A program made the translations under genes and the position numbers. A stretch of 64,000 nt of DNA, from assembly GCA_963665095.1 (NCBI GenBank), contig OY762069.1, positions 5,696,001 to 5,760,000 on the forward strand, given 5' to 3'. This stretch comes from an uncultured Desulfobacter sp. (GTDB lineage: Bacteria; Desulfobacterota; Desulfobacteria; Desulfobacterales; Desulfobacteraceae). The notes under the pieces were generated by a model, which was given only the letters and a program-made list of their open reading frames with translations, searched no databases and was not told where the DNA came from. Below, one piece after another: positions 5,594-22,496 of the stretch (within the stretch, counting starts at the first letter, position 1; each line of letters begins with the position of its first letter).

Positions 5594-7151
5594 TTATAAT
5601 CCGTTCAAACTGGGGGCCTCTGACAGGTCCAGCGCCTTCTGGGCTCCGGAAGCGGCCGATTCCGCCTGTTGAGCAGACAGCTTGCTTGAGTAGTTGAGTT
5701 CTTCCACGGTAGTGTTGGTCTGCTGTACTGCCGATGCCTGCTGCCGGATCACAGCTTCCTGCTCCGTCACTGAGGTGGTAATCTGTGCGGAGGAGGAAGA
5801 CAGAATGCTGATAATCTGGTTCAAAGGCCGGCTGACGGTTCTGGCAAAAAGAATACCTATGCCCAGCACACCTAACCCGCCGGTGACACCGAGAACCATC
5901 ATGGCATTTCGCAGGTCATAAAAGGATTCAAAGGCCTCTGCCTCACCAATGGTTGTCACAACTGCCCATCGGGTGCCCAGGGTATCTAAAGGCGCATAGC
6001 CGGCAATAACTTGGACGCCCCGGTAATCAGTGGTGACGCCAACGCCTTCTTCTCCCTGTAATGCAGCATGGACCACGGGACTGTCATAGGGAAGAATGCC
6101 AATGGCGGATTGTTGGCGGTTGACCTGATCAATGGTTGCCTGATCCACCCCTGCGGCTAAAAGCTGTTTTGCCAGCAGCTCCGGGGCCTGGGCAAAATGC
6201 CGCGAGGAGGATCGAAATTTCATATCTGGCCCAATGAGCAGGTTTTCTCCGGTTTTTCCCAATCCCATGCTTTGCCATTTATGGTTATTGGTCATGATGT
6301 TATTAATACCTTCAATGGAAACCTGAAAAATGATCGCACCAAGGATTTTTTCTTTTTCAAAAACAGGGGCGGCAATGAACGCCGCCGGTTTATTATATAA
6401 TGGCGGGTAGGGTTTAAAATCAGCAAAAAAAGTGGTCCCTTCTTGTTTTGCGGCCACAGCCTGTTTATATACACCGGCAATATTGGTATTGGCATAGGGT
6501 CCTGTGAGCAGGCTGGTGCCAAAATCAACTGCTTTGGTCACCGAATAGCCAATGTTCCCGGTTTCAGCGTTCACCAGAAAAAGATCACGGGTACCAAAAT
6601 TCTCCACAAAACTGCGGTATACAGGGTGATAACGGCTATGAATTACAGAGTAGGAACTCTTATCGTCAGCTTTATCCAGTTTTTGTTTTTCATTGACGGG
6701 AAAAGGATTGTTTGCAATATACCGGTACTACAGATATTGAACTGACCAAGACCTGGGGCCACCACAGGGAAAGCGCATCAGGCGGGGCATTAATGGTATT
6801 GGACTGCTGATAGACATACCTGGCTTTCAGCCGGGAGTTGACCAGGGATTCCTCAGCGTAGAACGCGTGTTGTTCAGTCCTGTTGAACGACTTGAATCCC
6901 ATGGTTAAACGATCCATGGCATCAATGGTCATGATGTTTTGGGCCTGGGTCACCACCTGGCGCCGGACGGTATCCAGGTACAAGGCAATGGTTTCCTTTC
7001 GGCTTTCCTCCAGAAAAGAGAGCTGATCCATGGTCTTTTTTCTCAGTGCAGACTTTGAATTGAAAAATGCATAGGTGCTGATGGGACAAAAGGGCGTCAG
7101 GCCGATAAGTATAAATAAACCGATGAGTTTATGGAATAGTTTAAATTTCAT
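5594..7151 (-). pseudogene. Cache-domain methyl-accepting chemotaxis protein, disrupted
   Basis: TM-Cache-TM then start of the MCP signalling domain (EQ..QQASAVQQT); frameshift near 6745, in-frame TAG at 6728-6730 (L*YRYIANNP), signalling domain truncated near 5615. Confidence 0.8.
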
Positions 7152-7484: not shown

Positions 7485-9710
7485 CTAACGTGTTCGGACT
7501 TTCAGGGGCCGGGCCGCACTGGCCACGGCCGTCAATGTAATCAGGTTATGAATCAGTGCTCCCGCAAAGGGCGAAATAATGCCGGTGAGCATGAGCAGCA
7601 GGGTTGCACTGTTCAGGCCAATGGCCAGGGAATAGCTTTTGCGGATCACTGACAGGGCATGCTGCCCTAAGTCCAGGGTATCTGCCACACCACCAAGGCC
7701 GCCGTGCTGCAGAACGACATCCGCACATTCAAGGGTTAAATCTTCACCTGCCTCACCCACGGCAAAACTTAAGTGAGACCTGGAAAAGGCCGGGGTGTCG
7801 TTGATCCCGTCCCCTGCCATGGCAATAACGGCAAGGGGATTTTCCTGTTTTTTACCTGCAATCCATTCAGCCTTGTCTTCGGGCGACATCCCCCAGTGAA
7901 CCTCGTCAAAGGCAAGGCGCGCAATTAAATCCCGGGTGCCCTCCCGGGTATCTCCGGTGAGGAGGATGATATGCGAAATGCCCATCCGGCGCAGCCGGTC
8001 CAGGGTGTCGGCGCCGGCATCAGACCGGATCACATGGGTCGCATGGATGCATCCTAAAATATGATCATCAAAGGCCACATAGACAACTGAATCTGACGGA
8101 TATGCGTCGGCACGGCCCCGGGCCTTATGGGCCCCAGATCCGGGTGCACAGGACTCAGGCAGTTTCACACCCCTTTCGGCCATGAATTTGCCGGAACCGG
8201 CCAGAAGGGTGCGCAACCCGGTTCCGGTCCGGATATTTGCTTCAACCCCCTGGCCCACAACCAGTTTCCGGGTATCGCAGGAGGGCAGGTCCAGATCCAG
8301 CTCATGGGCTTTGACGGCCACAGCCCGGCTTAAGGGGTGGTTCCAGGTGGCAAGTGCGGCCGCAGCCAGCTTTAAAATGGTATGGTCCTTATAACGGCGG
8401 TCCACCGCCACCACCCGGGTCACTCGGGCCGTGTTTTCAGTCAGGGTGCCGGTTTTATCCAAAACCAGCATATTGACCCGGCCGGCGGTTTCCACATGGG
8501 AGCCGCCCTTGATCAGAATTCCTTTGGACGCTGCCTGGCCCATGGCGACAGACACAGCTGTTGACGTAGACAGACGAAGGGCACAGGGACAGGTCACCAT
8601 GATGGTGGCAATGGCAAGGAACAACGACCCGGTCATTAAAAAGGCAACCCCGGCCAGGGCCAAAGAGACGGGCACCATGTACTGGGAAATTTTCAGGCTG
8701 GCCCGGCCCATCTCCCCTAAATCGGTCTGGGCAGACTCAATGAGCCGGATAATGGAAGCCATCCGGGTCTGGTCCCCGGTCTTTTCCACCGCCACCCACA
8801 CATGGCCATCCTCCACCAGAGTACCGGCCAGCACCGTATGGTCAATATCTTTTACCACAGGCAGGCTTTCCCCTGTCATGACCGCCTCGTTGACAAGGGC
8901 AGTGCCTTTGACCACCCGGCCGTCCACCGGCACGGTACTGCCCTGGCAAAGAACGATGGTGTCACCGGGAAGAAGATCTTCAATACCCACCCGCACTTCC
9001 ACCCCCTCCACCAGTTTCCAGGCATGTACCTGACGTCCTGTCAGCATATCTGAAACCATTTTTCGCGTATGCTGCCGGATCCGCGATTCCATCCAGCCGG
9101 ACAGGTTATAAAGCCAGGCCACCACAAGTGCCGTAAGAATATTGCCGGTAATAAGTGAGAGATAGAGCAGGCCGGTGGAGATAAAACTCATGTCCATGCG
9201 CCCGGTGGTTTTAAAATTTTCCACGGCCTGGCGCTGGATGGGCATGGCCAGCCACAGGGTCAGCGCCACGGGCAGGCTGACCAGGCGGGCCAGAAGCGTG
9301 CCGGCGGTGGGCATCGGCGCAAATATCCGCTTGATGACCAGCCATCCAATGTAGATGCCGGATACGATCAGGGTGGCGCCGGATACGTGACAGGATTTGT
9401 CCGCATCCGGAGTTTTAAGGGAAAACGCGCCGGAACCACCGGCCGCCGCCTTTTGGATTTTCAATTTTTCAAGCGCAGCTGCCTGGCCGGATATCTGCCG
9501 GATCAGGGCGTTGAGATCCGGCACCCGCTCCGGGTGAACCAGAACAACGGAACCTGTCCCGGGCCGGACCTCAACAGAATGAAAACCACCCTGGTTTTCA
9601 AGCAGAGATTGGACATGGGTACAGCAGGCCGGCTGGTGCCGCAACCCCGGAAACTGAATCCGGGTCCGAAAAGATGTGACCTGCCTAAGTTTAAACCGCA
9701 TCCCGTCCAT
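7485..9710 (-). CDS. P1B-type heavy-metal ATPase (TCPC / HNxxT), fez-cluster paralog
   Basis: TGES, DKTGT, GDGIND; TM4 TCPC, TM6 HNLIT; N-terminal degenerate HMA with RxR and CC. Confidence 0.88.
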   Translation of the reverse strand: MDGMRFKLRQVTSFRTRIQFPGLRHQPACCTHVQSLLENQGGFHSVEVRPGTGSVVLVHPERVPDLNALIRQISGQAAALEKLKIQKAAAGGSGAFSLKTPDADKSCHVSGATLIVSGIYIGWLVIKRIFAPMPTAGTLLARLVSLPVALTLWLAMPIQRQAVENFKTTGRMDMSFISTGLLYLSLITGNILTALVVAWLYNLSGWMESRIRQHTRKMVSDMLTGRQVHAWKLVEGVEVRVGIEDLLPGDTIVLCQGSTVPVDGRVVKGTALVNEAVMTGESLPVVKDIDHTVLAGTLVEDGHVWVAVEKTGDQTRMASIIRLIESAQTDLGEMGRASLKISQYMVPVSLALAGVAFLMTGSLFLAIATIMVTCPCALRLSTSTAVSVAMGQAASKGILIKGGSHVETAGRVNMLVLDKTGTLTENTARVTRVVAVDRRYKDHTILKLAAAALATWNHPLSRAVAVKAHELDLDLPSCDTRKLVVGQGVEANIRTGTGLRTLLAGSGKFMAERGVKLPESCAPGSGAHKARGRADAYPSDSVVYVAFDDHILGCIHATHVIRSDAGADTLDRLRRMGISHIILLTGDTREGTRDLIARLAFDEVHWGMSPEDKAEWIAGKKQENPLAVIAMAGDGINDTPAFSRSHLSFAVGEAGEDLTLECADVVLQHGGLGGVADTLDLGQHALSVIRKSYSLAIGLNSATLLLMLTGIISPFAGALIHNLITLTAVASAARPLKVRTR

Positions 9711-9771
9711 TCACACCAAATCAAAAAGCGTTAAACTTTTTTAAATAAACCCTAAAATAACCATCTTTGCC

Positions 9772-9896
9772 GTATTTGGACGCAAAGTGGTTCAGATGCA
9801 AGGCGCAGGAAATGTTGCAACCGGAGCAACCTTAAGGTTGTGAGGATTGTAACTTTTCCTGCAACGCCGCAGGTGGGCCGCTTTGGGTTCAAATAC
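9772..9896 (+). repeat. ~125 bp inverted-repeat (MITE/REP-like) element, copy 1
   Basis: GTATTTGGAC...GTTCAAATAC termini; core CAGATGCAAGGCGCA..GTGAGGATT..GCAACGCCGCAGGTGG shared with copies at 37171 and 58690. Confidence 0.85.
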
Positions 9897-10252
9897 TATT
9901 TTTTGCCTGCTGCTTCTGCTTCTACCTCTGCTTTAGCATCTTCAAACTTTTCCTTGATTTCCTCAACACCGGCGGATGCTGCTGCCACACACTTGGAAAA
10001 AGTTTTGACCACGGCTTTCTGTACCGTTTCATTGGTTACCAGAAGGGCCACGCCCGCCCCTAAAACGGCGCCCTTCCAAAAGGTGGCGGAGGTGGCATCA
10101 AGGCCCAAAAAAGAGGTGGCCGGGGCCTGTGCCACCTGCTGGGCCGCATAGGCCGGTTGCTGGACCTGGGCTGCTGCCGCTGCCGGGTCCTGATTCTGGG
10201 CAGATGCCTGATAATAGACCTGCTGGGTATTGGGATCAACATAGTAGCTCAT
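9896..10252 (-). CDS. Small Gly-zipper membrane protein with C-terminal helix (FezA/YtxH-like)
   Basis: FWKGAVLGAGVALL TM, EEIKEKFEDAKAE helix, N-terminal DPNTQQVYY. Confidence 0.7.
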   Translation of the reverse strand: MSYYVDPNTQQVYYQASAQNQDPAAAAAQVQQPAYAAQQVAQAPATSFLGLDATSATFWKGAVLGAGVALLVTNETVQKAVVKTFSKCVAAASAGVEEIKEKFEDAKAEVEAEAAGKK

Positions 10253-10363
10253 AGTTTTTCCTTCTTATATGGAAATTAAATAACTTAACTGGATTAATAT
10301 CATTGCTTTGCTGCAGGCCGTACCCGGACAGATATCTGCTCCGAATATTGGCCATGGCCGTTA

Positions 10364-10789
10364 TCAGGAAACAATGCGGTGAATCAGGTAGCTGACGCCC
10401 GTGGCAGCGGCCACGGTAACTGCTAACCCTGCGACACCCCCGCTGGTCAGGCCGGCTGCGGCTGCTGTGGCGCAGGCTGCTGCCGTGCCGCCGATGGCTC
10501 CTTTGGCAAGGCTGTCCCCGGCGGCCTGCCCCAGGGTCATTTCACCTTTGCCCACCTTGTTGAGGTTGGCGCCCATGGTGCCGGTGGATACCACAATAAA
10601 CCCGAAAATCCCGGCGCCGGCTGTTTGCGATGCAGCAGGGACAGAGGCCTTTGCCGGATAATTCGCGGTGGACATTTTCACAGGTGCGGCCGGATAAACC
10701 TGCACCGGGACAGCCTGGACATTGCTGTACTGGTGCAGCGGTGTGGTCTGATGGGCCGGGGTATGGGTGGAACTTGACGCATTTTCCAT
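10364..10789 (-). CDS. Gly/Ala-rich membrane protein, MamC-like
   Basis: GTMGANLNKVGKGEMTLGQA..LAKG; paralog of 18784..19203. Confidence 0.6.
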   Translation of the reverse strand: MENASSSTHTPAHQTTPLHQYSNVQAVPVQVYPAAPVKMSTANYPAKASVPAASQTAGAGIFGFIVVSTGTMGANLNKVGKGEMTLGQAAGDSLAKGAIGGTAAACATAAAAGLTSGGVAGLAVTVAAATGVSYLIHRIVS

Positions 10790-10816
10790 GGGGTAACTCC
10801 TTATATATGATAGCTT

Positions 10817-11503
10817 TTATTTTTTATCCGGATCCATATCCGGGGAAGGCGTCTGGGCCTGGGTCGCTTTATTCCCGAAAAGACTGCCAAACGTCTTTCC
10901 CATGCCTTTGCGCACGGATTCACTGGTCAAAAGAACGGTTGCAGCCGCCCCTACAATGGCTCCCTTCCAGAACTGGTCGTCCTGGGCGGTTTCCGAATAG
11001 AGCGTCTTTACGACATCCGCCACAGAGGCATCCCCTTCGGCAAAATCTTCAACCGATTTAATGATATTGGAAAAATCGGGCTGACGGGCAGCTTCCTGGG
11101 CCGGATCCTGAATTGGGATCTGTCCGGGGGCCGCCTGCTGGGCGCCATAAAAAAACTGGCTGCCGGGTGCCGCCATCTGCACGGGCTGTCCCTGGAAACC
11201 CGGGGCATAGTACAACTGGCCCGTGGCCGGGTCCATTAAAATATTGGGCTGATACGGTGCCTGCTGACCCGTTCCCTGGGCCTGGGCGTCCTTTGCCGGA
11301 TCTAACGTCTGCTGTTCTGAGCCAGAGGCCCGTGATGACATACCCTGATCTGCCAAATCCGGTTCAGGCATGCTGTCTGCCGCAGATTCCGGGTTGGAAG
11401 AAGCAGCGCCCCGGGCGCTGTTTTCCATGCTTCCGGTTCCAGTCTCCGGGACCTGAGAAGCCTGGGCGCCATCCACAGAAGACTGATTATCGTGGGATTC
11501 CAT
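10817..11503 (-). CDS. Gly-zipper membrane protein with long disordered acidic/Gln-rich N-terminus
   Basis: DPATGQLYY and FWKGAIVGAAA shared with 9896..10252; RBS AGGAGG. Confidence 0.7.
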   Translation of the reverse strand: MESHDNQSSVDGAQASQVPETGTGSMENSARGAASSNPESAADSMPEPDLADQGMSSRASGSEQQTLDPAKDAQAQGTGQQAPYQPNILMDPATGQLYYAPGFQGQPVQMAAPGSQFFYGAQQAAPGQIPIQDPAQEAARQPDFSNIIKSVEDFAEGDASVADVVKTLYSETAQDDQFWKGAIVGAAATVLLTSESVRKGMGKTFGSLFGNKATQAQTPSPDMDPDKK

Positions 11504-11615
11504 CTATTCCTCCTAAAGGGGATATAAGTGTTATGTTAATCTAACATTTGGTATGTTTTTCAGAAAAAGAGCGCTCTTTTTTAATACCGAAAACAGCTCT
11601 GATTCTCAAGCTTTT

Positions 11616-12164
11616 TCAGGGAATCGGATCTGCAGAAGGGGTTCGTGCAAATTCTCCTTTACCTGAAATATCCACAATGTCTCTTACGGTCAGAAACAAA
11701 AGGCGCGGTGCCTTAAGCCCGTAGGCCCTGAATGACCACTTAAAATCCAGGTCAATGGAAAACCCTGATCCGTTCCGGGTGATCATGAAGTTCAAAGGCA
11801 GGCGGCGCCGGGCACCTATGAATTCCAGGGCAGCCTGCACACTGACCTGATACCGCGACTCATCCAGGCGTGAAAATCCTGTCTGTTCAATCATTTCAAC
11901 GCTGGCTTCAGGGTATTTATCAACCTGCATATACTCAAACATGGCCCGGTTGCGGTCATCAAACCCGGTATCAAAATGCCGGGTCTGGGCAACCGCCCGG
12001 GCATGGGTTAAAAGGCCTGAATGAAAATTAATTTCCATTTCCGCTTCCACCCCCTGACAGGTCCAGCCTTTAAAGGTATGAAGGGGGGCATATGCGATGA
12101 AACGAACGTCGTAGCCGCTGTTTAATGTATAGGTGTCAACAATTTCTTTAGTTTCGCAATTCAT
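11616..12164 (-). CDS. YceI-like lipid/polyisoprenoid-binding protein
   Basis: HTFKG, FDTG..DRN, KYP, YGLKAPRLLFL.V.D.V YceI pattern; overlaps the end of the upstream ATPase. Confidence 0.75.
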   Translation of the reverse strand: MNCETKEIVDTYTLNSGYDVRFIAYAPLHTFKGWTCQGVEAEMEINFHSGLLTHARAVAQTRHFDTGFDDRNRAMFEYMQVDKYPEASVEMIEQTGFSRLDESRYQVSVQAALEFIGARRRLPLNFMITRNGSGFSIDLDFKWSFRAYGLKAPRLLFLTVRDIVDISGKGEFARTPSADPIP

Positions 12165-14460
12165 CTTGGTCTTCTGACGGCTTTCCAGCCTTTTGTTCTA
12201 ATTTATGTCCCACAGGTTTCATGGGCTCACAGGGCGGTTCCCAGGAGAGAAGACGACCCGAATTGACCAGTATTCCTGCTGTATGAAAGATGTGAATCAT
12301 TCCGGCCATGACCGGAGAGAGTATTCCCAGCATGCCTAAGGCGGCACCTCCCAGGTCAGTAGATACCGCAAAATAGTGATTCTGGTCAATAACCTTCATG
12401 GTCTGGTGGCTTAAATTGCGCACTTTAATTAACCCTTCCAGGTTGGAATCAGCCAGGGCGATGTCGGCGGCTTCCAGGGCCACTTCGGCCCCACCGGCGC
12501 CTATGGCCACCCCGATGTCGGCCCGGGCCAGAGCCAGGGCATCGTTGACCCCGTCACCCACCATGACCACGCGATGCGCTTTTCGCAGTTCGTCCACCCG
12601 GTCGGCCTTTTCTTCGGGCAGCAACGGGGCCCGGCAATCGTCAAAGGGGAAGATATCCATCATGGTCCGGGCCACTTTTTCGCTGTCCCCGGTCACCAGA
12701 TGAATGGCCCTGACCCCGTCTTTTTTAAGACCCGAGAGCACTCTCACCGTTTCCGGACGGATGGGATTGGCGATCCCCATCATGCCCACGGCGCTGCCGT
12801 TCCTCGCCACATACACCACGGTGCGGCCCCTTGAAATTTCCCGGGCGCATATTTCGTCAAACCAGTCCGTCTCCACATCATTGTCAGACATAAATGCCTG
12901 GTTGCCCACCAGGACAACATCCTCGCATCCGATATTGCATGACACACCGCGGCCGGCCTGGAATTCACACACGGCATGAGCCCTGACATCCAGGTGGCGC
13001 GCCTTGGCCTCCTCCAGAATGGCCCGGGCCATGGGGTGCTGGTTGTGGGATTCTGCGGTGGCCGCCAGACTTAAAACATCATCTTCGGTCAGGTCAGGGT
13101 CCCGGCTTTCAATGGTCATGATCTGGGGGACATCACAGGTCAGGGTCCCGGTTTTATCAAAACAGTAGACATCGGTCTGTCCCACCAGCTCCAGATAGTA
13201 CCCGCCCTTGATCAAAATGGAGTGACGGGCCGCATTGGCCAGGGATGCGGTGATGGCGGATGATGCGGCCAGAACCGTGGCGCAGGGACAGGACATGACC
13301 AGCATCACGGTGAGTGCTCGCAACGGATCCAGTGTAAAGACCAGGGTGGCCAGGGTGGCGGCCAGGCCGATTTTCAAGAGTCGTGCGGCAAGCTCGTCCG
13401 CTTTCTGTTCCACCGGGGCCCGGTTGGCCAAAGAGTCCTCCACCAGACGCATGATACCGGCAAGATAGGTATCCTGTCCGGTTTTCATGGTGCGGATAAA
13501 CAAGGTTCCCTGGGAGATAATGGTTCCGGCGTATACCTTGTCGCCGATCTCCTTGAATACGGCTTCTGACCGGCCGTTAATTGTGGCCTCGTCCACCAGG
13601 GCGTCCCCGTCCAGGATAATCCCGTCCACAGGAATCTTCTCTCCGGTATGGGCTGCCACCACATCATCCGGGCGGATATCCGCCACCGGGGTCTCCACCT
13701 CCATACCGTCCCGCATTACATAAGCATTGGCCGGGGCCACCTCCAGGATGTTGCGGATGGCTTTTCTGGACCGCTGGGCCACATAGTCTTCGGTGAGCTC
13801 GGCCACATTGTAAATCCACAGAATCTGGATGGCGGAAAAGGCTTCCCCCATCATAATGGTGGCAATGGATCCGGCGGACAGGAACGGTTTGACCGTCACT
13901 TTTCTCTTTTCCGCCGTATCTTTGACAGCCTCTTTGATCAGAGGAATGGTGCCGGATATGGCGGCCAGCCCGAGAAAGGAAAGGGGGGTCTGGGCAAGGG
14001 CAAGGCCAAATACCCATTTGCGGATCAGGGCATAGACCATCACCCCAGAGAGCCAGCCCACCCGCCGGGCCTTGGATGAAAACGTAGCCGGCGTATCCAT
14101 TTCACACCGGCAACGGGTGCAGGCAGTGTTCTCATTTTCATTCTCAACATCACAGGTATCGGGAAAGGCCCTGGGGTTGGCCACCTGGATCAAAACAGCT
14201 GTAAGCAGGCCTGTAACATCTGCCTTTTCAGGATTAAATACAAGAATAACTGATCCGCTTGAGGGCCTGACATCAGCCTGGATGACGCCGGCATGAACCG
14301 CCATTACTTTCTGCATCCAAGCCGATTTTTGTTTGTTCTGACGGCAGACCGTCACTTGAACCCGCATCCTGCCCGGCATATACTGCCGGACCCGAATCCC
14401 GTTTTTTTTCAACAGGCCCGGGTTTAAAGGCCGGATTTTTCCATTTATCTTATTAGTCAT
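12148..14460 (-). CDS. P1B-type heavy-metal ATPase (SCPC / HIFHT), with NGRS in place of TGES
   Basis: DKTGT, GDGVND, HP; GRMRV N-terminal HMA-like domain, CTRCRC linker; ATG 14460 likely (ORF extends to 14523). Confidence 0.88.
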   Translation of the reverse strand: MTNKINGKIRPLNPGLLKKNGIRVRQYMPGRMRVQVTVCRQNKQKSAWMQKVMAVHAGVIQADVRPSSGSVILVFNPEKADVTGLLTAVLIQVANPRAFPDTCDVENENENTACTRCRCEMDTPATFSSKARRVGWLSGVMVYALIRKWVFGLALAQTPLSFLGLAAISGTIPLIKEAVKDTAEKRKVTVKPFLSAGSIATIMMGEAFSAIQILWIYNVAELTEDYVAQRSRKAIRNILEVAPANAYVMRDGMEVETPVADIRPDDVVAAHTGEKIPVDGIILDGDALVDEATINGRSEAVFKEIGDKVYAGTIISQGTLFIRTMKTGQDTYLAGIMRLVEDSLANRAPVEQKADELAARLLKIGLAATLATLVFTLDPLRALTVMLVMSCPCATVLAASSAITASLANAARHSILIKGGYYLELVGQTDVYCFDKTGTLTCDVPQIMTIESRDPDLTEDDVLSLAATAESHNQHPMARAILEEAKARHLDVRAHAVCEFQAGRGVSCNIGCEDVVLVGNQAFMSDNDVETDWFDEICAREISRGRTVVYVARNGSAVGMMGIANPIRPETVRVLSGLKKDGVRAIHLVTGDSEKVARTMMDIFPFDDCRAPLLPEEKADRVDELRKAHRVVMVGDGVNDALALARADIGVAIGAGGAEVALEAADIALADSNLEGLIKVRNLSHQTMKVIDQNHYFAVSTDLGGAALGMLGILSPVMAGMIHIFHTAGILVNSGRLLSWEPPCEPMKPVGHKLEQKAGKPSEDQDELRN

Positions 14461-14610
14461 ATTATTATCTTCAAAAGGGTTAATCTGGCCTGCCAAACTA
14501 TCACACCTCATTAGCCATTTCAAACTTTTATTTTATTTCTAATATTTTTTATAAAATAAATTTTAATTGTGAGTCTGCTCTAAATATTACATAGCTTAAA
14601 AAATTAATAC

Positions 14611-14639
14611 TTGACTATAAGATTAGTTGAAACTAATAT
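14611..14639 (+). promoter_or_regulatory. sigma70 promoter overlapped by a palindromic operator
   Basis: TTGACT-17 nt-TAATAT; perfect ATTAGTT-GA-AACTAAT at 14622-14637. Confidence 0.6.
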
Positions 14640-14676
14640 GCCGTGACAATATATCAATTGCTTTTATGGAGGAGAT

Positions 14677-14817
14677 ATGGCACCCTTTATTCCAATCGCT
14701 TGTGGTCTTGCCACCGTACTTACCTGTGCCCTTGCCGTGGAAACAGGCAAGGGGACTAAAAAAACCATTGAACGCAGAAAAAGAAGAAATGCCAGAAAAA
14801 CTGGATCCCGAAGTTAA
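14677..14817 (+). CDS. 46-aa small membrane protein (not in the ORF track)
   Basis: GGAGGAG RBS; MAPFIPIACGLATVLTCALAVETGKGTKKTIERRKRRNARKTGSRS*: hydrophobic N-terminus, basic tail. Confidence 0.65.
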   Translation: MAPFIPIACGLATVLTCALAVETGKGTKKTIERRKRRNARKTGSRS

Positions 14818-15028
14818 AAAAGAGATCGCTAAAATCACCATGACCGCCAGTTTAGGCGTGACCGTGATCACAGCGCCTTTTTTAAAAAAGAACAAAACTC
14901 TGAAAAATATCCATACCGGTGCCGGGGTATTGCTAGTGGGCAGTGCCCTGTGGCATCATTTTCTTTACCACTCTGAAAAAAAAGCAAAAAAGGCGATTCC
15001 TGCAGAACCGGAAACAAAAAAAGCCTGA
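14789..15028 (+). CDS. Small 2-TM His-containing membrane protein
   Basis: TM1 ASLGVTVITA, TM2 IHTGAGVLLVGSALWHH; ATG 14789 overlaps the small ORF. Confidence 0.65.
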   Translation: MPEKLDPEVKKEIAKITMTASLGVTVITAPFLKKNKTLKNIHTGAGVLLVGSALWHHFLYHSEKKAKKAIPAEPETKKA

Positions 15029-15284
15029 CGATTCTCCCGGCCCACTGATTCATGGTCAAAAATACTGTCCCTTGGGCTGGTTCGGCCGTTCCCTGATAAA
15101 TCTGGTACCAGGTGCCATGTCGGACCAACCCTTTAAAATTTCATACAGGTATCTGCATGTGAGCACCCGGATGTCATGATGCGGCTTTTTAACTTAGTTT
15201 AAAAAATAAAACTAGCAATCACAGACATTTATAAAAAATCAGCCCATGTTAGCGGTGATTAAAATATATAATAAAATTAACGCG

Positions 15285-15313
15285 TTGACAAATAAGATGA
15301 CGGGTTTTATGAT
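15285..15313 (+). promoter_or_regulatory. sigma70 promoter
   Basis: TTGACA-17 nt-TATGAT upstream of 15387. Confidence 0.7.
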
Positions 15314-15386
15314 ATTGATCATGGGAAATATCCCTTTGGTAATTTCCATGAGTCAATAAAAAGATGTCAAGACAAAGGAGGAAATT

Positions 15387-15569
15387 ATGTTTTATCTGCC
15401 ATTGACAGCATCTCCCCTTGGCTGGATCATCCTTGGAGCCGGCGGGTACGCCCTTTATAAAGCCGGCAAGAGAAAAGGCCAGGATGAAGCAGCTGCATCC
15501 CAGATCACGGAAATTCCAAAAGAGGATGATAAAACCAAAACCACCACAGCCAAAGGAGCTAAATCATGA
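15387..15569 (+). CDS. Small Gly-rich membrane protein (FezA-like)
   Basis: PLGWIILGAGGYALYKAGK; RBS AGGAGG. Confidence 0.7.
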   Translation: MFYLPLTASPLGWIILGAGGYALYKAGKRKGQDEAAASQITEIPKEDDKTKTTTAKGAKS

Positions 15570-15835
15570 GTGTACCTGTAGTTGCGCATCCCTTGGGATG
15601 GATTGTTCTCGGCGCCGCCGGCTTTCTCACCTATAAGGCAGGAAAAAAAGCCGGTCTGGAAAACAGCCAGGATGTCACCAAAACCAGTTTGTCCGACCGA
15701 ATGGTCAAAGGAGCAATGAAAACCGTTTATAAAACCCAGAAAAATGTTTCCGAGGCCTTTGGAAAAACAAAAGAAAAATACGGCACCATGTGGTCAGAAG
15801 CCAGGGAAGAAGCAGAGGCAAAGCCAGCCAGCTAG
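15566..15835 (+). CDS. Small Gly-rich membrane protein with C-terminal amphipathic helix (FezA-like paralog)
   Basis: PLGWIVLGAAGFLTYKAGK; ATGA coupling; WSEAREEAE. Confidence 0.72.
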   Translation: MSVPVVAHPLGWIVLGAAGFLTYKAGKKAGLENSQDVTKTSLSDRMVKGAMKTVYKTQKNVSEAFGKTKEKYGTMWSEAREEAEAKPAS

Positions 15836-15933
15836 AAATTTGGCATGCTTGAGTGCTGATCTCCCCAGAAATAGAGCTTAGCACCCCCCTGCGTTTGAAC
15901 GGCTCGCAAGAGAAGTTCATGCCCACAACATTT

Positions 15934-16686
15934 TCAGGCAGTCCGGACGATGACTGCGCCAGCCTTTTCCGGCGTAAGAAAAAGGCGCAGTCCTCCCGGG
16001 CTTGATATGGTCACAGGTTCAGTATCAGGCCCGTGACCCTGAAGAGAGGTTGCCTGATCAATGGATTCCAGATACAGAGAAACACCGACCTTCACCCCAT
16101 GGGTCTCCAGATGCTGAACGCTTCTGGGACCGCCCATCAGCTCTGTCACTTCAAAGGCCACGCCTTTTTTTGCAAAATAGAACTGGGTCAGACCCTGGTT
16201 GGGATAATTGCCCCAGATTTTGGCCGCCTCCCCTTCTGACAGCCGGGTTCTTTCCCGGCCGTTGATCAGGGTCACATAATCCATATGCGGCATGGACCGG
16301 ATAAAACGGATATTTTCGTCATCAGGCAGGCCCAATCGCTCCAGGGCTTTTTCAAGAAAGCGACCCCCGGAATGGATCTCAATATGGCCCTTCTGGCCTT
16401 TTTCCATTTGTGCCAAAGGAATTTTTTCGCCGGATTCCAGATGTATATATAATTTCATCACAAGACCTGCGGGAATAATCACATCCCCCTTGGTCCCGTG
16501 CACCCGCACTGAATAAAAGTTGACTTCCTGGTCATGGCGAATGATCTTTGCCCCGGGAAACAGCCCCATATGTTTCAGCCATTTCTCCACATGGGAGTTG
16601 GTGACCTGGAGCAAAACAAGTTCGGTGTTTACCGGTGCATCAATCAATGACGAATAGATATTTCCATCTTTAGGCATGGTGATCAT
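15934..16686 (-). CDS. Multi-domain FeoA-family protein
   Basis: Three FeoA-like units (LKHMGLFPG, LERLGLPDD, LETHGVKVG; LSEGEAAKI, LTPEKAGAV); overlaps the ATPase end. Confidence 0.75.
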   Translation of the reverse strand: MITMPKDGNIYSSLIDAPVNTELVLLQVTNSHVEKWLKHMGLFPGAKIIRHDQEVNFYSVRVHGTKGDVIIPAGLVMKLYIHLESGEKIPLAQMEKGQKGHIEIHSGGRFLEKALERLGLPDDENIRFIRSMPHMDYVTLINGRERTRLSEGEAAKIWGNYPNQGLTQFYFAKKGVAFEVTELMGGPRSVQHLETHGVKVGVSLYLESIDQATSLQGHGPDTEPVTISSPGGLRLFLTPEKAGAVIVRTA

Positions 16687-18787
16687 TGTCCTGTTTTGTA
16701 GTTTCCGGAATCATGGCCCGCTGCTCCCTCATTGCGGCATAGCCCAGAATCCCCACGGTGCTTGCATTGTGCAGAATAGCAGCGGCCACAGGTTTGAGCC
16801 ACCCCAAAGAGGCCATCAGCAGAAATGACGAATTCAGGGAAACTGCCGATACAAAGGACTGTTTAATGGTTCCCTGGCAGCGCAGTGCGATCAGGCGCCC
16901 GGTGAGCAGGCAGTTCAGGTCCTCCTTGAGCAGAATCACCTGAGCCGACTCCTTGGCAAGATCCGCCCCCGATGGCAGGCAGATGCCCACATCCGCCGAT
17001 ACCAGGGCAGGCGCATCATTCACCCCGTCTCCGGTAAAGCCTAGGATACAGCCTTCCTCCTTGAGCCGGGCAACAATATCAGCCTTATCCTCGGGCCTGA
17101 GATCTGCGTACACGTCGTCCACATCCGGCAGATATTGGGCCAGGGCCTTTGCCGTACGTTCCGTATCCCCGGTCAGAATTACTATTTTCTTAATGCCTGC
17201 GGCCTTGAGCCCGGAAAGCACGCTACACGCTTCCGGTCGAAGCTCATCCCGCAGACCCAAGACCCCTTCGAGCATCCCGTCCCGGGCCACATAAAGCAGG
17301 CTTTTTCCCTCCTCTTCAAAGGCCTGGGCCTCTTTGTCTGCGCCGGAACAGTCAATGCCTTCGTCGTCCTCTATGAAATGGCGGCTTCCCACCAGGACGT
17401 TGAGATCGTCAATATAGGCAGAGACACCATGTGCCACGATAAAGTCCACCTGGCTGGTGGGAGAAAATTCCAGATGTCTTTCCCGGGCCGCACCCACCAC
17501 GGCCGCTGCCACGGGATGTGCGTAATGCTCTTCCGCAGAGGCAGCCAGTGCCAGCAGCTGATCACTGTCAAGCCCGTTGACACTGACCACGTCCGTCACC
17601 TGGAGTTTGCCTGAAGTCAGGGTACCGGTTTTATCAAACACCAGGGTGTCCACCCGGGCCAGACTGTCCATGGCCTGGGCACCCTTGAGCAGCACCCCCT
17701 GCCGGGCCGCCGTGTGCATGGCCACCCGCACAGCCACGGGGCTGGACAGTTTAATAACGCAGGAGTAGTCCACGGTGAGTACGGCAGCTGCCTTTTCCAG
17801 ATCACGGGTAAGTGCAAACAGACCCACACCCAGCCCGAAAGTAACAGGCACCAGCTTATCCGCCAGCTCATCGCTTCTCTTCTGGGAATCGGATTCATAC
17901 CGCAAAGAGTCTTCCAGGAACTTTGAAATCCTGGCCACTGAAGTTTCCGCACCTACACGCACGGCCTCAAATATGATACGTCCCTCTTCAATCACGGAAC
18001 CGGAGATCACCTCATCCCCGGGTTTGACATGAACCGGCACAGACTCTCCGGTCACAGAACTCTGGTTGACAGCCGCCTCGCCTTCCAGGACCCGGCCGTC
18101 CAGGGGAATCATCTCGCCGGGCCCCACCACCACCCGGTCACCAATGCCGGCCTCTTCAAAGGGGATCTGGATCTCCTGCCCGTCTTTTTCGATCCATATT
18201 TTATCAACCTGGGGCTTTAACAGGCTTTTAAGCAGGCCCGTGGTCCTTGTTTCACTAATTTTTTCAAAATACTCGCCCAGGGCCAGGAGAAAGACAATGG
18301 AGGCTGCGGTAAAATAGTCCCGCCGCCATAAAGAAAAGGAAACCGCAGCCGCATCCAGCACCTCCACCTTAACCTGCCGGTTCCAGAGACAGGCCACCCC
18401 GTCAATGATCACCGGGGCCGACAGCATCAGGGCCAGGGGTGCACCAAAGAGTTTGGGAAGAAAAAAACAGGCCAGGGCCAGGGCGCCTTTTGCCGTCAGG
18501 CCAAGAAGGGACGGCGGCGCCTTTCTGTCGTTTTTTCCGTTAAAGACATCCAGAGGCAGATCCTGGATGCAGCCAAGCACAGCAGACCGGGTCTCTTTAC
18601 GGCTGTCATATTGGATAATCAGGGAGGAGGCACGACTGTTGAGCCGGGCCGATTCCACACCCGGAATAATCTCCAGGGTGGCTTCCAGGTAGTCGGGGTC
18701 TAGGTCCGGATCTCGCAGGAACCGCCCTTTCAGCCGCATTCGGTTCGGCAGTTCGCTGACAATGGTCAAGGGACGGGTCAGGCTCAT
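16670..18787 (-). CDS. fezB: P1B-6-type ATPase, ferrosome FezB-like
   Basis: TM4 DYSC-xxKL, TM6 HNAST, N-terminal RMRL, TGES, DKTGT, GDGVND: the signature described for ferrosome P1B-6 ATPases. Confidence 0.8.
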   Translation of the reverse strand: MSLTRPLTIVSELPNRMRLKGRFLRDPDLDPDYLEATLEIIPGVESARLNSRASSLIIQYDSRKETRSAVLGCIQDLPLDVFNGKNDRKAPPSLLGLTAKGALALACFFLPKLFGAPLALMLSAPVIIDGVACLWNRQVKVEVLDAAAVSFSLWRRDYFTAASIVFLLALGEYFEKISETRTTGLLKSLLKPQVDKIWIEKDGQEIQIPFEEAGIGDRVVVGPGEMIPLDGRVLEGEAAVNQSSVTGESVPVHVKPGDEVISGSVIEEGRIIFEAVRVGAETSVARISKFLEDSLRYESDSQKRSDELADKLVPVTFGLGVGLFALTRDLEKAAAVLTVDYSCVIKLSSPVAVRVAMHTAARQGVLLKGAQAMDSLARVDTLVFDKTGTLTSGKLQVTDVVSVNGLDSDQLLALAASAEEHYAHPVAAAVVGAARERHLEFSPTSQVDFIVAHGVSAYIDDLNVLVGSRHFIEDDEGIDCSGADKEAQAFEEEGKSLLYVARDGMLEGVLGLRDELRPEACSVLSGLKAAGIKKIVILTGDTERTAKALAQYLPDVDDVYADLRPEDKADIVARLKEEGCILGFTGDGVNDAPALVSADVGICLPSGADLAKESAQVILLKEDLNCLLTGRLIALRCQGTIKQSFVSAVSLNSSFLLMASLGWLKPVAAAILHNASTVGILGYAAMREQRAMIPETTKQDNDHHA

Positions 18788-19203
18788 TGGGCCTGCCCTT
18801 CCGGGGTATCACAGGAAGATTCCGGTGCCTTTTTCATTATCCGGTCAATCATGTACCCGGCCCCGGCCAGGGCTGCGGCGGTAAGCCCGATGTCCAGAAG
18901 GGTTTTCTTCTCGGTCAGGGAGAGAATCACGGTGGCAGCCACCCCTTTGGCCAGGCCATTGGCCACGGCGGCGGATTTGCTCAGGGTGCCGTTTTGCACA
19001 TCCACCATATTTGAGCCGAGGGTGGCGGCAGAGGCGATGGTCACGGTGATGGCTGCAAACTCCCAGGCGGGAAACTGCTCCCGGGGTATTGGAATGGGGG
19101 CAAAAAGTGCCGGTCCTGGAACCGGGGTTACGGGTATCGGTGTTGTGTCTGCAGCCAGGAAAGGATGCTGAACCGGTGCCTGAACCGGGGATTGTATATT
19201 CAT
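18784..19203 (-). CDS. MamC-like Ala/Gly-rich membrane protein with Pro-rich N-terminus
   Basis: ATLGSNMVDVQNGTLSKSAA..LAKG; ATGA-coupled to the fezB-like gene. Confidence 0.6.
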   Translation of the reverse strand: MNIQSPVQAPVQHPFLAADTTPIPVTPVPGPALFAPIPIPREQFPAWEFAAITVTIASAATLGSNMVDVQNGTLSKSAAVANGLAKGVAATVILSLTEKKTLLDIGLTAAALAGAGYMIDRIMKKAPESSCDTPEGQAQ

Positions 19204-19329: not shown

Positions 19330-19596
19330 CTACTTTAACTGACTATCTTTACTCCCTCTTCTATTAATGCCGGTTGACGCTGTCCGGGAGGCCTCATGCT
19401 CGGTCTGGCAGTCCACGCACAACCTCACCCCGGGCAGCGCCTTTCTGCGACCTTCCGGGATCTCTTCTCCGCATATCTGACAGTGGGTGAGGCTTTCACC
19501 TTTAGGCATCCTGCTCCTGGCAAGGCTTACGGCGTCTTCCACACCCGCATCAATCTGTTCCTGTACGGCCCCGTCCCGGGCCCATCCAACAGCCAT
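19330..19596 (-). CDS. DksA/TraR C4 zinc-finger protein (YbiI-like)
   Basis: MAVGWARDGAVQEQID..CQICGEEIPEGRR..LCVDCQ..NRRGSKDSQL. Confidence 0.92.
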   Translation of the reverse strand: MAVGWARDGAVQEQIDAGVEDAVSLARSRMPKGESLTHCQICGEEIPEGRRKALPGVRLCVDCQTEHEASRTASTGINRRGSKDSQLK

Positions 19597-19609
19597 AATT
19601 CCCTTCCTA

Positions 19610-20572
19610 TCAGGACATGTTGTCCCAGAATGACCGGCTCTGATCTTCCATTGATCCTGCATTGGCCTGTCTGCCGGAGGATCTGTTATCGTTTTTCGTC
19701 CAGGCGGCGCCTGTGGACACGCCTGCACTCCGAATGCCGGTAAGCCGGGCCACCCGGTCCTCAATGGATGGATGGGTGGAAAAAAGGTTCATCATCTGCT
19801 TTCCGGTCAAAGGATTGACAATAAACATATGGGCTGTGGAGGGACTGGCATCCACCTGGGCACCCCTGCGGCTGAAACCGCCCAGCTTTGACAGGGCGGA
19901 CGCAAGGCCGTTGGGATTGCCGGTGATGCTTGCTGCCGTGGCATCGGCCAGGTACTCCCGGGACCTGGAAACCGCCATCTGGACAATCATGGCGGCGATG
20001 GGCGCAATCATGGAAACCACCAGCACGCCAATGAACCCAAGGCCGCCCTCGTCATCATCCCGCCCACCGAAAAAGGCAGAAAACCTGGCAATGGACGCGA
20101 TCCACATAATAGCGCCGGCCAGGGTGGCCACAATGGTGGAAATCAGGATATCCCTGTTCTTCACATGCCCCAGTTCATGGGCAAGGACCCCTTCAAGCTC
20201 TTCCTGGTTCATCATGTTCAAAAGGCCCTGGGTAACTGCCACCACGGCATGTTCCGGGTTTCTTCCCGTGGCAAACGCATTGGGCGCGCCATCAGGAATC
20301 AGATAGACCTTTGGCATGGGAAGGCCTGCCTGCCGGGCCAGACGCGCCACAGTATCATACACCCCCGGGGCATGGGACCGCTCCAGAGGCTGAGCCCGAT
20401 ACATTTTCAACACCATTTTATCCGAATACCAGTAACTGGTTATATTCATCACACCGGCAAAGATCAGGGCGATGAACATGCCGGTCTGACCGCCCAGCAG
20501 ATATCCTATAAACAAAAACAGCCCGGTCATGATTATCAGCAACATGCCGGTTTTAAACTGATTTGCCATCAT
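19610..20572 (-). CDS. htpX: Zinc metalloprotease HtpX (M48)
   Basis: PNAFATGR, HELGH, SRSREYLAD, STHP. Confidence 0.93.
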   Translation of the reverse strand: MMANQFKTGMLLIIMTGLFLFIGYLLGGQTGMFIALIFAGVMNITSYWYSDKMVLKMYRAQPLERSHAPGVYDTVARLARQAGLPMPKVYLIPDGAPNAFATGRNPEHAVVAVTQGLLNMMNQEELEGVLAHELGHVKNRDILISTIVATLAGAIMWIASIARFSAFFGGRDDDEGGLGFIGVLVVSMIAPIAAMIVQMAVSRSREYLADATAASITGNPNGLASALSKLGGFSRRGAQVDASPSTAHMFIVNPLTGKQMMNLFSTHPSIEDRVARLTGIRSAGVSTGAAWTKNDNRSSGRQANAGSMEDQSRSFWDNMS

Positions 20573-20954: not shown

Positions 20955-22496
20955 TTATTGAACAACCACGACGTTACCCACGATGGGCAGTGCATCCGGT
21001 TCATTCTCCGGGTCTGTAACCGCTCTTACAACTACGATATAGTTACCGTTAAAAGGAAACGTAATATCGCAGGTATTCGCAGTGGAATACTCCTGTACCC
21101 TGTTCCACGTATCATCGGCACCCGAAATCCCATAATTTGCCTGATAATAGAACTCATAATAAATCGGATCGGAGGTGCTGTTGGATGCGGTTGCCGTAAA
21201 GGTCACTGTGTCACCGGCACTGATGGTGCCCGTTGCATTGGATGTGAGACTGCTAATGTTTACATGGGATCCGCTTCCTACAGTGACGACGCCTCCGATG
21301 ATCGGCAGGGCCTGGGGTTCATCGTCCGGAGAGGTTACGGTCCTGACAACCACAATATAGTTGCCTTCTGACGGGAATGTATAATTGCAGGTATTACTGG
21401 TGGAATAATCCTGCACCACGGTCCAGGGAGTACTGTCGTAACCGGAAGTGCCGTAGTTGGCGCAGTAATAATATTTATAGTAGACATCGGAACCGTCCAG
21501 GTTGCCCGCATTGACGGTGACCGTCATTGAATCCCCAGGGCTGATATTCCATGTTGCGTCAAAGCTAATGCCAATAATGTCCGGATTTGCGGACAGCACC
21601 CTGTAAGCAACAATGGTCTCATCAAGGTCCGGGACAAGGAGAAGATTTAAATAAGGGGAGTAAGAAATGTCAGCCAGCCATGTATATCCATCCCCTGCAA
21701 CAAGGGGCTCGGTAGTGTTATCCGGTTTCAATACACCAACAGTCATGCCGTTGGAATAAAAACAGTTTGAATAATTATCCCCGAAGATACCATCAACATA
21801 ATCTATGCCTGATACGCGGGTTGTAACTTCCAGGGTTGTGATATCCACAGAGGCGATACCGCCGTCGGTTCCCACGATAAGTTTTCCATCTTCCACATAT
21901 AATCCATTTGGATTTGGCACATCCGCACGGGCACTCAGCCACTCCCTCATGGCTGAAGCTCCGTCTTCCAATATATATATATTGCTGAAATTGGCATCAC
22001 TGGCATAAATATTTCCCGATGCGTCCACGGCAAGGCCATTCAGATTGGATCCTTCTACGCCGGTCTCGAAAATATCGGTAATCTCGCCGGTGGAAAGATT
22101 AACCGCCGTTAGCTGATCCCCGTCACCCACATATAATGTTCCACCTGTTACCGTGTTCTTTACAACCATGCCCAAAGGATCATTAAAAATTCCGCCTCCG
22201 GAGGATGTCCCTGCCCACTCTGCAGTATCGACAGTGCCGTCCGTATTAATTCTTGAAATATAGCCGTCCCCTTCTTCACTCCCGTTTAAGTTGGAGGCAT
22301 AAATATAATTGGTCACAGGATCATAGACAACAGATTCAGTATGTTGAAAACCAGTAGTTGTCCAAGCCTCGGTTACATTGTACAAGCTATTGGCAGAAAC
22401 GCCCTGACAAATAACAAACCCGCCTAAAAGGGCCAGAATCCATTGCATCAGGCCGGAATAAAAGATAAAGCCGTACCGGGGATTTTGTTTCTTCAT
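20955..22496 (-). CDS. Secreted SMP-30/gluconolactonase-like beta-propeller with two C-terminal Tyr-rich (Y_Y_Y-like) repeats
   Basis: Signal-like N-terminus; HTES, DGYISR, PLGM, LNGL, PNGL, DGI; two ~100-aa repeats (YY.ANYG..W..VQ.YST..FP..GNYIVVVR). Confidence 0.7.
   Translation of the reverse strand: MKKQNPRYGFIFYSGLMQWILALLGGFVICQGVSANSLYNVTEAWTTTGFQHTESVVYDPVTNYIYASNLNGSEEGDGYISRINTDGTVDTAEWAGTSSGGGIFNDPLGMVVKNTVTGGTLYVGDGDQLTAVNLSTGEITDIFETGVEGSNLNGLAVDASGNIYASDANFSNIYILEDGASAMREWLSARADVPNPNGLYVEDGKLIVGTDGGIASVDITTLEVTTRVSGIDYVDGIFGDNYSNCFYSNGMTVGVLKPDNTTEPLVAGDGYTWLADISYSPYLNLLLVPDLDETIVAYRVLSANPDIIGISFDATWNISPGDSMTVTVNAGNLDGSDVYYKYYYCANYGTSGYDSTPWTVVQDYSTSNTCNYTFPSEGNYIVVVRTVTSPDDEPQALPIIGGVVTVGSGSHVNISSLTSNATGTISAGDTVTFTATASNSTSDPIYYEFYYQANYGISGADDTWNRVQEYSTANTCDITFPFNGNYIVVVRAVTDPENEPDALPIVGNVVVVQ

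Follow-up and report, generated by a model that had tools for sequence, protein, structure and literature searches.

Why would a bacterium keep three distinct P1B-type metal ATPases together in one gene cluster of the ferrosome (fez) type? This question is raised by positions 7485..19203 of a 64,000-nt stretch of DNA from an uncultured Desulfobacter sp. (GenBank assembly GCA_963665095.1, contig OY762069.1, positions 5,696,001 to 5,760,000), the whole of which we call the window. A reading made from the DNA letters alone, hereafter the sequence-only reading, had taken the locus for an expanded ferrosome-like one, possibly a multi-metal or import-plus-export storage organelle. As described in a ferrosome preprint, FezB is defined by D[Y/F]SCA in transmembrane helix 4 (TM4) and HNxxT in TM6, most fez clusters comprise between two and ten genes and include GxxxG proteins, and the larger ones carry a second uncharacterized P1B-ATPase (FezH) together with DUF4405 and FeoA-domain genes (bioRxiv 10.1101/2020.01.10.902569). 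Our analysis points to a fez-type cluster with three distinct P1B pumps that likely builds iron ferrosomes, vesicles of iron phosphate, by means of two working loaders and one stalled accessory pump, a reading to which we give a probability of roughly 0.55.

Three distinct pumps in a fez-type cluster

The three P1B ATPases listed by the sequence-only reading, with DYSC/HNxxT, SCPC/HIFHT and TCPC/HNxxT motifs, all lie on the minus strand where it had placed them and all score above the TIGR01525 cut-off. We refer to them as FezB, the FezH-like (second) pump and the third pump. All three have DKTGT, HP and GDGxND motifs and an R-rich N-terminal motif (RMR, RMR and RTR, with an HMA_2 match in two of them), and the TGE glutamate of the actuator domain is present in FezB and the third pump. 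The fifth residue of the FezB signature is valine here (DYSCV) and not alanine. Pairwise identity among the pumps is 28-30%, so they are not recent duplicates. The ratio of nonsynonymous to synonymous substitution (dN/dS, ten pairs for each pump) is 0.07-0.10 for FezB, 0.09-0.16 for the FezH-like pump and 0.17-0.22 for the third pump; all three are under purifying selection. Recent duplication or decay of one pump is ruled out by this identity together with dN/dS values of at most 0.22, and an assembly artefact by synteny in related loci. Contigs from four public sequencing runs, one of which may be the source sample, span the locus and its pumps without a frameshift. The genome holds five E1-E2 ATPase matches, three of them in the locus; outside it are a pump of CopA type that carries CxxC domains and another with GCPC/HNAGS (FCPC/GCPC-type).

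Relationships were examined in a FastTree phylogeny of the 95 rows left from 150 after removal of near copies and in an IQ-TREE quick tree of 43 chosen rows, with Escherichia coli ZntA and CopA included. Each pump forms its own clade with support of 99-100 in both trees, and all three fall within a 99-supported group with CtpC-like (including DUF1490-linked) and DYSCG-type pumps, apart from ZntA and CopA. In approximately unbiased (AU) tests, for which the groups were chosen after the first tree had been viewed, placing the third pump with ZntA-type pumps or with CopA was rejected (p 0.004 each), as was placing the FezH-like pump with ZntA-type pumps (p 0.021); the third pump and FezB as a single group were not rejected (p 0.116). 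By FastTree, IQ-TREE and AU tests alike, the pumps do not group with ordinary Cu/Zn exporters, as the sequence-only reading had expected. The sister of the third pump is DYSCG-type in FastTree (support 91) and CtpC-like in IQ-TREE (89), and since the trees disagree we claim no origin for it.

The fez character of the locus, also proposed by the sequence-only reading, is borne out by the position of the DYSC pump in a fully supported FezB clade and by three families of small membrane proteins. Hidden Markov models (HMMs) of these families, built from related loci, match, in the same order, the trio of genes that leads up to fezB in a fez-type cluster of six genes on an alphaproteobacterial Cereibacter plasmid (Table 1; E-values are for a search sized at 100 sequences). 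The GxxxG proteins, with GAVLG and GAIVG motifs, match at E 2e-20 and 1.5e-10. The Cereibacter cluster is itself uncharacterised, and the comparison is with that cluster and not with the proven Desulfovibrio magneticus or Shewanella putrefaciens proteins. The trio precedes FezB in the Cereibacter cluster and the third pump here; we tentatively use the names FezE, FezF and FezG for its members after a figure legend of the preprint.

Conservation of the arrangement was surveyed in 161 genomes of the family, with the third pump recognised at 495 bits or more (next match 291) and FezB orthologues at 55% identity or more. The third pump was found in 16 genomes, FezB in 20 and the FezH-like pump in 21. 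Fourteen genomes have all three, within about 12 kb in twelve of them, split over contigs in one and spread over 22 kb in another. The remaining combinations are FezB with the FezH-like pump (five genomes), the FezH-like with the third pump (two) and FezB only (one draft, 56% complete). The three-pump layout recurs in two distant metagenome contigs, in which the third pump is 45-47% identical, and the synteny that the sequence-only reading had proposed to examine is thus conserved. Close homologs that carry a name are from Desulfobacter, and D. curvatus DSM 3379 and D. vibrioformis DSM 8776 carry the locus. Plasmid searches with FezH-like and FezB queries turned up nothing but one fez-type and CtpC-type references, with no orthologue of the FezH-like or the third pump.

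Several observations on related pumps and loci are recorded here in their own right. Both CPC pumps lack the proline that usually stands six residues after CPC in P1B pumps (ASS and STS versus ATP/STP); basal relatives of the third pump retain it. A separate R-rich P1B clade carries IDYSCG(V/I)RLSTA and HNxxT (L060:7018-9237, L071:3197-5395, L170 and L171); this DYSCG-type clade has the RLST helix end in common with the third pump, and an HMA_2 gene adjoins it in L060 and L071. Six sequences of 1,600-1,700 aa (P0263, P0266, P0286, P0287, P0297 and P0303) have an R-rich P1B-like part with degenerate TM4 cysteines and, in some, a degenerate TGE, and could be tandem pump fusions. In L039/L040 (G040:C1:285000-308300) the cluster is duplicated in tandem, as a real event or an assembly effect; one copy is complete, and the second keeps FezB and the third pump, with the FezH-like pump reduced to a 47-aa remnant and two plus-strand genes gone.

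A second pump without the actuator glutamate

Aligned to the SGE of the solved CopA, the TGES site of the second pump reads NGRSE, that is, the actuator glutamate is replaced by arginine, a feature that the sequence-only reading had missed. Arginine occupies this position in 118 of 120 homologs, the other two having glutamine and glutamate, the latter in a FezB-type sequence. Gly-Arg is present in all 37 distinct FezH-like copies from fetched loci. Among 150 representatives at 50% identity, the 28 members with an HxxH helix comprise 23 with arginine, one with glutamine, one with asparagine and three in which the site is uncovered, giving no glutamate in 25. The DKTGT and GDGxND motifs and the metal ligands are invariant in a 30-row alignment. 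An AlphaFold model shows a complete P1B fold (pLDDT 82.7), which supports the fold only.

Published accounts state that the actuator glutamate is present in all pumps (PMC10654040) and assign dephosphorylation to TGE (PMC5684295). With the glutamate lost and the phosphorylation motifs intact, the FezH-like pump is predicted to become phosphorylated and then to stall. That the arginine is conserved rather than drifting suggests a functional role, for which sensor, scaffold or gate are candidates. TGE-glutamate mutants rest in a lumen-open state. The FezH-like pump accompanies FezB in 19 of the 20 FezB-bearing family genomes, as the sole second pump in five of them, and all 21 family genomes that have it also have a TGE-intact partner pump.

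Another possibility, which we regard as improbable, is that the FezH-like pump is fully active and is dephosphorylated by another chemistry, the leaving phosphate being stabilised by arginine and the step completed by a different base or by plain hydrolysis, and that the locus has three active pumps. Its invariant ATP-binding and phosphorylation motifs and rich metal site would fit such activity, as would a dN/dS near that of FezB and its presence without a partner pump in four drafts. A glutamate two residues on (+2) is found in 117 of 120 close homologs; as a general replacement catalyst it was rejected, since distant members lack it (SVP, AAP, SLP, SLQ, PDL, SSP and TLP). The universal, dephosphorylating role described for the TGE glutamate also speaks against this alternative. 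It is probably wrong to picture three working pumps, each with a metal specificity of its own, as the second pump is without the catalytic glutamate, and we prefer the reading with one stalled accessory pump.

The third pump

The third pump belongs to a rare clade, named members of which are found only in Desulfobacterota. There are 81 close clusters, after which the score drops from 483 to 350 bits, and besides the source genome it was found in three or four of 400 sampled genomes of the phylum (one top match proved to be DYSCG-type). Its TCPC site is conserved within the clade and its TM5/TM6 ligands are those of FezB. Outside the family, five genomes in which no FezB orthologue was found have the FezH-like and the third pump (G407, G353, G748, G751 and G660), which brings the genomes with this combination to seven (best FezB match at most 38%). 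In a further genome (G499) the third pump was found with scaffold genes and neither of the other pumps. In these eight genomes the third pump is in the position of FezB beside the same scaffold genes, often next to feoB; in scanned loci with the FezH-like and third pumps and no FezB found, feoB adjoins four of six. These comparisons suggest that the third pump likely stands in for FezB in relatives without it.

Does the third pump load the same metal? The chief alternative to our reading is a multi-metal organelle: iron would enter through FezB and a second metal (Zn, Mn, Co or Ni) through the third pump, either in one shared vesicle or in two sister ones, and the vesicles of FezB-less relatives would hold the other metal. 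We consider this possible, if doubtful. The clade-conserved TCPC in TM4 differs from the DYSC of FezB and comes near the CPC/HN of CtpC, and the retention of both pumps under selection in 14 genomes is poorly explained by pure redundancy; Co/Ni-type neighbours (CbiM/CbiQ, CbiX, ZinT, ZnuA and HypF) also flank some third-pump loci. Replacement of FezB beside the same scaffold genes and adjoining feoB, however, fits the same job equally well, the TM5/TM6 ligands of the two pumps are identical, and no metal riboswitch was found: in seven related loci Rfam gave no match at gathering score, and in the window region it gave two matches of chance level. A reading with two iron loaders therefore remains the one we favour.

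In locus L049:6923-15412 a gene of the third-pump clade shares its operon with a P2-type ATPase, an HMA_2 gene and the cobalt-uptake genes CbiM/CbiQ. A feoB gene lies a few kb downstream of the third pump in L087 and L088.

Small membrane proteins and the effluxosome comparison

About eight small Gly/Ala-rich membrane proteins, including three paralog pairs, had been listed by the sequence-only reading. The number stands, with seven small genes from the list of open reading frames (ORFs) and an eighth recognised by its ribosome-binding site (46 aa, 14677-14817); the composition does not hold throughout, as the protein of the 14627 ORF has only 13% Gly plus Ala. Full-length copies of the 46-aa gene, 80-90% identical, are present in 12 fetched loci, four of which are second fetches of the same genomes. 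The paralog pairs hold by pairwise comparison and family HMMs (genes are named here by their lower window coordinate): 9896/10817 (33%, E 4e-10), 10364/18784 (26%, E 5e-7) and 15387/15566 (44%, E 1e-11).

Affinity of the small proteins to MamC of magnetosomes was upheld in part: the 10364/18784 family is distantly related, its homologs reaching E 2.6e-18 to NF038051, and every score lies under the cut-off of that family. No other magnetosome genes were found in the locus by Pfam and family profile scans, and magnetochrome PF18509 had no match in the genome, nor in the control genomes tried. FezC and DUF4405 are reported to bind heme b (PMC10979944). DUF4405 profile PF14358 matches the 14789 protein at E 0.045 and a homolog at E 4.9e-5, both under the cut-off, and the histidine pattern of DUF4405-like proteins is kept in this protein and all its homologs. 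The YceI and multi-FeoA proteins named by the sequence-only reading are both present. PF04264 matches the former above its cut-off; lacking a hydrophobic segment, it is likely a cytoplasmic lipid carrier, and its gene follows the FezH-like pump in most three-pump loci and is absent in L042. PF04023 passes for one stretch of the latter, and profile comparison supports three repeats (d1-d2 E 5e-6, d2-d3 E 6e-4, d1-d3 E 0.0025). In a protein atlas the 9896 protein matched unnamed 'YtxH-like' clusters only and nothing was returned for the 15566 protein. A predicted complex of the 9896 protein (residues 48-118) with the N-terminal domain of the third pump (1-85) scored 0.22 against a mark of 0.32 and was not used as evidence.

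The layout of small scaffolds and several pumps recalls the mycobacterial effluxosome of PacL1-3 (DUF1490) with CtpC, CtpG and CtpV, which has related P1B pumps with N-terminal domains lacking CxxC, small one-helix scaffolds with glycine grooves and Glu/Ala-rich helices, and in CtpC the same CPC and HN site as the third pump (PMC13043812, PMC13460109). The locus could accordingly be a platform on which small proteins gather the pumps into cytoplasmic-membrane patches that export surplus metal, and no vesicles would form; we judge this very unlikely. Three R-rich P1B pumps with small GxxG/EA-repeat scaffolds match the effluxosome layout, and a DUF1490-linked CtpC-like pump falls with all three into one clade of 99% support. 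In contrast to the effluxosome, which exports Zn/Cd at the plasma membrane (same sources), the locus has FezB, MamC-like and DUF4405-like genes and links to iron uptake, and these links together with a repressor-type operator fit induction by shortage and not by excess. Homology of the small proteins to PacL was tried and is not significant: DUF1490 had no match among small proteins of the locus or related loci (HHalign probability 1%; best E 0.031, for the 15566 protein), whereas three of them match fez-type genes. We therefore retain the fez-type reading of the small proteins.

Second copies of 15566-, 15387- or DUF4405-like genes occur a few kb downstream of the third pump in several Desulfobacter genomes, at L036:956-1340, L037:487-1601, L041:206-481, L043:19495-19982 and L085:11151-11987.

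Iron context

The genomic context of the locus, as judged from gene neighbourhood, is one of iron: a FeoA-repeat gene is part of it, feoB and DtxR-family genes stand beside its relatives, and it has an operator in common with feoAB. As the sequence-only reading had noted, there is no feoB in the window; both feoB genes of the genome are located elsewhere. A TTAG-N6-CTAA palindrome, which we take to resemble DtxR/MntR-family boxes, occupies the stretch from the -35 to the -10 box in the plus-strand promoter; nine of nine aligned loci conserve it, with variable spacer. Across the genome there are 11 such sites at spacing 6, compared with 0-7 at ten other spacings. Three of the ten other sites precede feoAB, a TonB receptor-PepSY unit and DUF2325, and the rest precede unrelated genes. 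Two DtxR-family regulators are encoded in the genome, and a DtxR-family gene heads each of the two distant three-pump loci. Exact Fur-box-like patterns had zero matches in the genome.

How the cluster may work

We propose that under iron shortage a DtxR-family repressor would leave the operator, and part or all of the locus would be expressed with feoAB. By analogy with fez and PacL systems, the GxxxG and MamC-like proteins would assemble within the membrane, bind the R-rich N-terminal domains of the pumps and give vesicles their shape, the DUF4405-like cytochrome would set the redox state of iron, and the YceI-like protein may carry lipid. FezB and the third pump would move Fe2+ from the cytosol to the lumen, probably with different affinity or rate. 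A preprint of 2026 reports ferrous phosphate in Clostridioides difficile ferrosomes, which fits an Fe2+ loader. The FezH-like pump is predicted to bind metal at a Cys-Cys-Asp-His-His site and to be phosphorylated at the DKTGT aspartate, with dephosphorylation slow or nil; it would then report or gate vesicle metal rather than pump in bulk, its likely role being that of a sensor or gate for metal. The direction in which P1B pumps move metal is out of the cytosol (PMC10654040), so active pumping out of the vesicle is unlikely and the import-plus-export organelle of the sequence-only reading, if meant as active pumping, loses ground. The three-pump locus could have arisen by merger of a FezB module and a third-pump module, each with a FezH-like pump, both of which exist separately.

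Several points weigh against this account. The name FezH is given provisionally, from context. Four draft genomes outside the family (G313, G347, G422 and G321) have the FezH-like pump with neither a FezB nor a third-pump orthologue, which argues against a strictly dependent subunit. The genomes counted as FezB-less are drafts of 85-100% completeness, many of them fragmented, in which a gene not found is not a gene proven absent. The CPC and HN site of the third pump resembles that of CtpC, described as a zinc exporter from the P1B-6 neighbourhood (PMC13460109), and in the IQ-TREE tree the third pump stands among CtpC-like rows, with weak support (89). The exact operator site was not found before the fezB unit, and the three of ten other sites before iron-uptake-type genes are to be compared with about three of 11 expected by chance. 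DtxR-family repressors also sense manganese.

Comparison with known clusters

The locus resembles known fez clusters (fezABC of D. magneticus, the six-gene operons of S. putrefaciens and Rhodopseudomonas palustris, and the larger FezH clusters) in having a FezB that carries D[Y/F]SC and HNxxT and whose N-terminus is R-rich, several GxxxG proteins, a further R-rich P1B pump with other metal sites, DUF4405 and FeoA-domain genes, a link to iron homeostasis and an anaerobic host. It differs from them by the third distinct pump, doubled scaffold genes, YceI, the 46-aa gene and three transcription units, and in having neither a separate HMA-domain FezC/FezD nor a DUF2202 ferritin-like gene in the locus. 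With CopA (P1B-1) and ZntA (P1B-2) the pumps have the fold and the DKTGT, HP and GDGxND motifs in common, and two have CPC; they differ in lacking CxxC domains, in other TM5/TM6 ligands and, in the second pump, in the missing TGE glutamate, and grouping with them was rejected (AU p 0.004-0.021).

The text consulted of the ferrosome preprint mentions no third pump, lost TGE glutamate or FezB-less cluster; its supplementary tables may list the third pump, since cultured Desulfobacter carry the locus. The titles and abstracts consulted of the ferrosome, P1B and TGE literature include none on a three-pump cluster or the lost glutamate, and the Grant and Komeili preprint was the only literature found on FezH with the ferrosome. 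The locus is a real, conserved variant of the ferrosome cluster, and as such it is new as far as the literature consulted goes.

Layout of the locus and neighbouring genes

ORFs and inspection of ribosome-binding sites give 13 genes in three transcription units: unit 1 (minus, 19203 to 15934) with a membrane protein, FezB and the FeoA-repeat protein; unit 2 (plus, 14677 to 15835) with the 46-aa gene, the DUF4405-like gene and two paralogous small genes; and unit 3 (minus, 14460 to 7485) with the second pump, YceI, three small membrane genes and the third pump (Table 1). The 18784 gene is ahead of fezB in related three-pump loci too. The ORF of the FezH-like pump has 791 aa and extends to 14523, with a likely start at 14460.

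Table 1. Features of the three-pump locus, in window coordinates
Feature	Position	Strand	Basis and remarks
Small two-helix membrane protein, 139 aa, first gene of the fezB unit; MamC-like, putatively FezF-like	18784..19203	-	Paralog of 10364 (E 4e-8 to the 10364-family HMM)
FezB, P1B-6 ATPase, 705 aa; RxR (RMRLK), TGES, DYSCV, DKTGT, GDGVND, HNAST	16670..18787	-	Motifs; TIGR01525; FezB clade SH-aLRT 100
Protein with three FeoA-like repeats, 250 aa	15934..16686	-	PF04023 E 1.7e-9; repeat comparison; downstream of fezB in two- and three-pump loci
89-aa protein, one N-terminal hydrophobic helix, Glu/Ala-rich C-terminal helix	15566..15835	+	PacL/FezA-like layout; homology not significant
60-aa paralog of the 15566 protein	15387..15569	+	Paralogy; conserved promoter upstream
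DUF4405/FezC-membrane-like two-helix protein, about 79 aa, conserved histidines; likely heme b cytochrome	14789..15028	+	ORF finder extends it to 14627
46-aa protein, hydrophobic N-terminal half, basic tail	14677..14817	+	Absent from ORF list; strong ribosome-binding site; conserved copies
Promoter TTGACT-17-TAATAT with palindrome TTAG-N6-CTAA at 14623-14636 between the boxes	14611..14639	+	Candidate metal-repressor operator
FezH-like P1B ATPase, 770 aa; RMRVQ, NGRSE for TGES, SCPCA, DKTGT, HP, GDGVND, TM5 Asp, TM6 HIFHT	12148..14460	-	Own clade, SH-aLRT 100
YceI-like protein, 182 aa	11616..12164	-	PF04264 E 1.2e-6, 29.4 bits, above cut-off; no hydrophobic segment
GxxxG membrane protein, 228 aa, long Pro/Gln/Ala-rich N-terminus; putatively FezE-like	10817..11503	-	E 1.5e-10 to ORIO_RS21760
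MamC-like two-helix membrane protein, 141 aa; putatively FezF-like	10364..10789	-	NF038051 E 0.0026 (under cut-off); E 5.7e-6 to ORIO_RS21755
GxxxG membrane protein, 118 aa, conserved acidic amphipathic C-terminal helix; putatively FezG-like	9896..10252	-	E 2.3e-20 to ORIO_RS21750; family alignment
Third P1B ATPase, 741 aa; RTRIQ, TGES, TCPCALRLST, DKTGT, TM5 Asn, HNLIT; catalytically complete	7485..9710	-	Motifs; clade SH-aLRT 100

Between the 9896 gene and the third pump (window 9790-9885) lies a hairpin-forming intergenic repeat of about 100 bp that is REP- or MITE-like and matches 66 other sites in the genome. The fezB unit is directly preceded, on the same strand, by htpX and a DksA/TraR zinc-finger gene (19330-20572, minus), neighbours that are not constant in relatives. 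Further out on the minus strand, adjacent ORFs of 153 and 337 aa (5594-7151) resemble one chemoreceptor-type dCache gene, split in two and shortened at its end, and a 523-aa secreted-looking protein (20955-22526) has an SGL beta-propeller match and repeated C-terminal Ig-like units.

What three pumps may mean for ferrosomes

A bolder picture, tentative and in our view unlikely, is that ferrosomes are modular, with one scaffold set that takes interchangeable loader pumps, and FezB dispensable, that vesicles without FezB are built by the CPC-type pump and may serve a second metal, and that FezH is phosphatase-dead, held lumen-open by its arginine and a metal sensor or a gate through which stored iron is released. 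If true, it would explain how iron is mobilised from ferrosomes and provide a P-type 'pseudo-pump' that has a function. Iron release from ferrosomes and storage of other metals are named as open questions in a 2026 review (PMC13463818), and both are testable in cultured Desulfobacter carrying the locus. Surveys that use FezB as the marker would miss clusters that use the third pump instead. A P-type ATPase family under purifying selection with arginine at a supposedly universal glutamate would be a natural stalled pump or a case of new chemistry.

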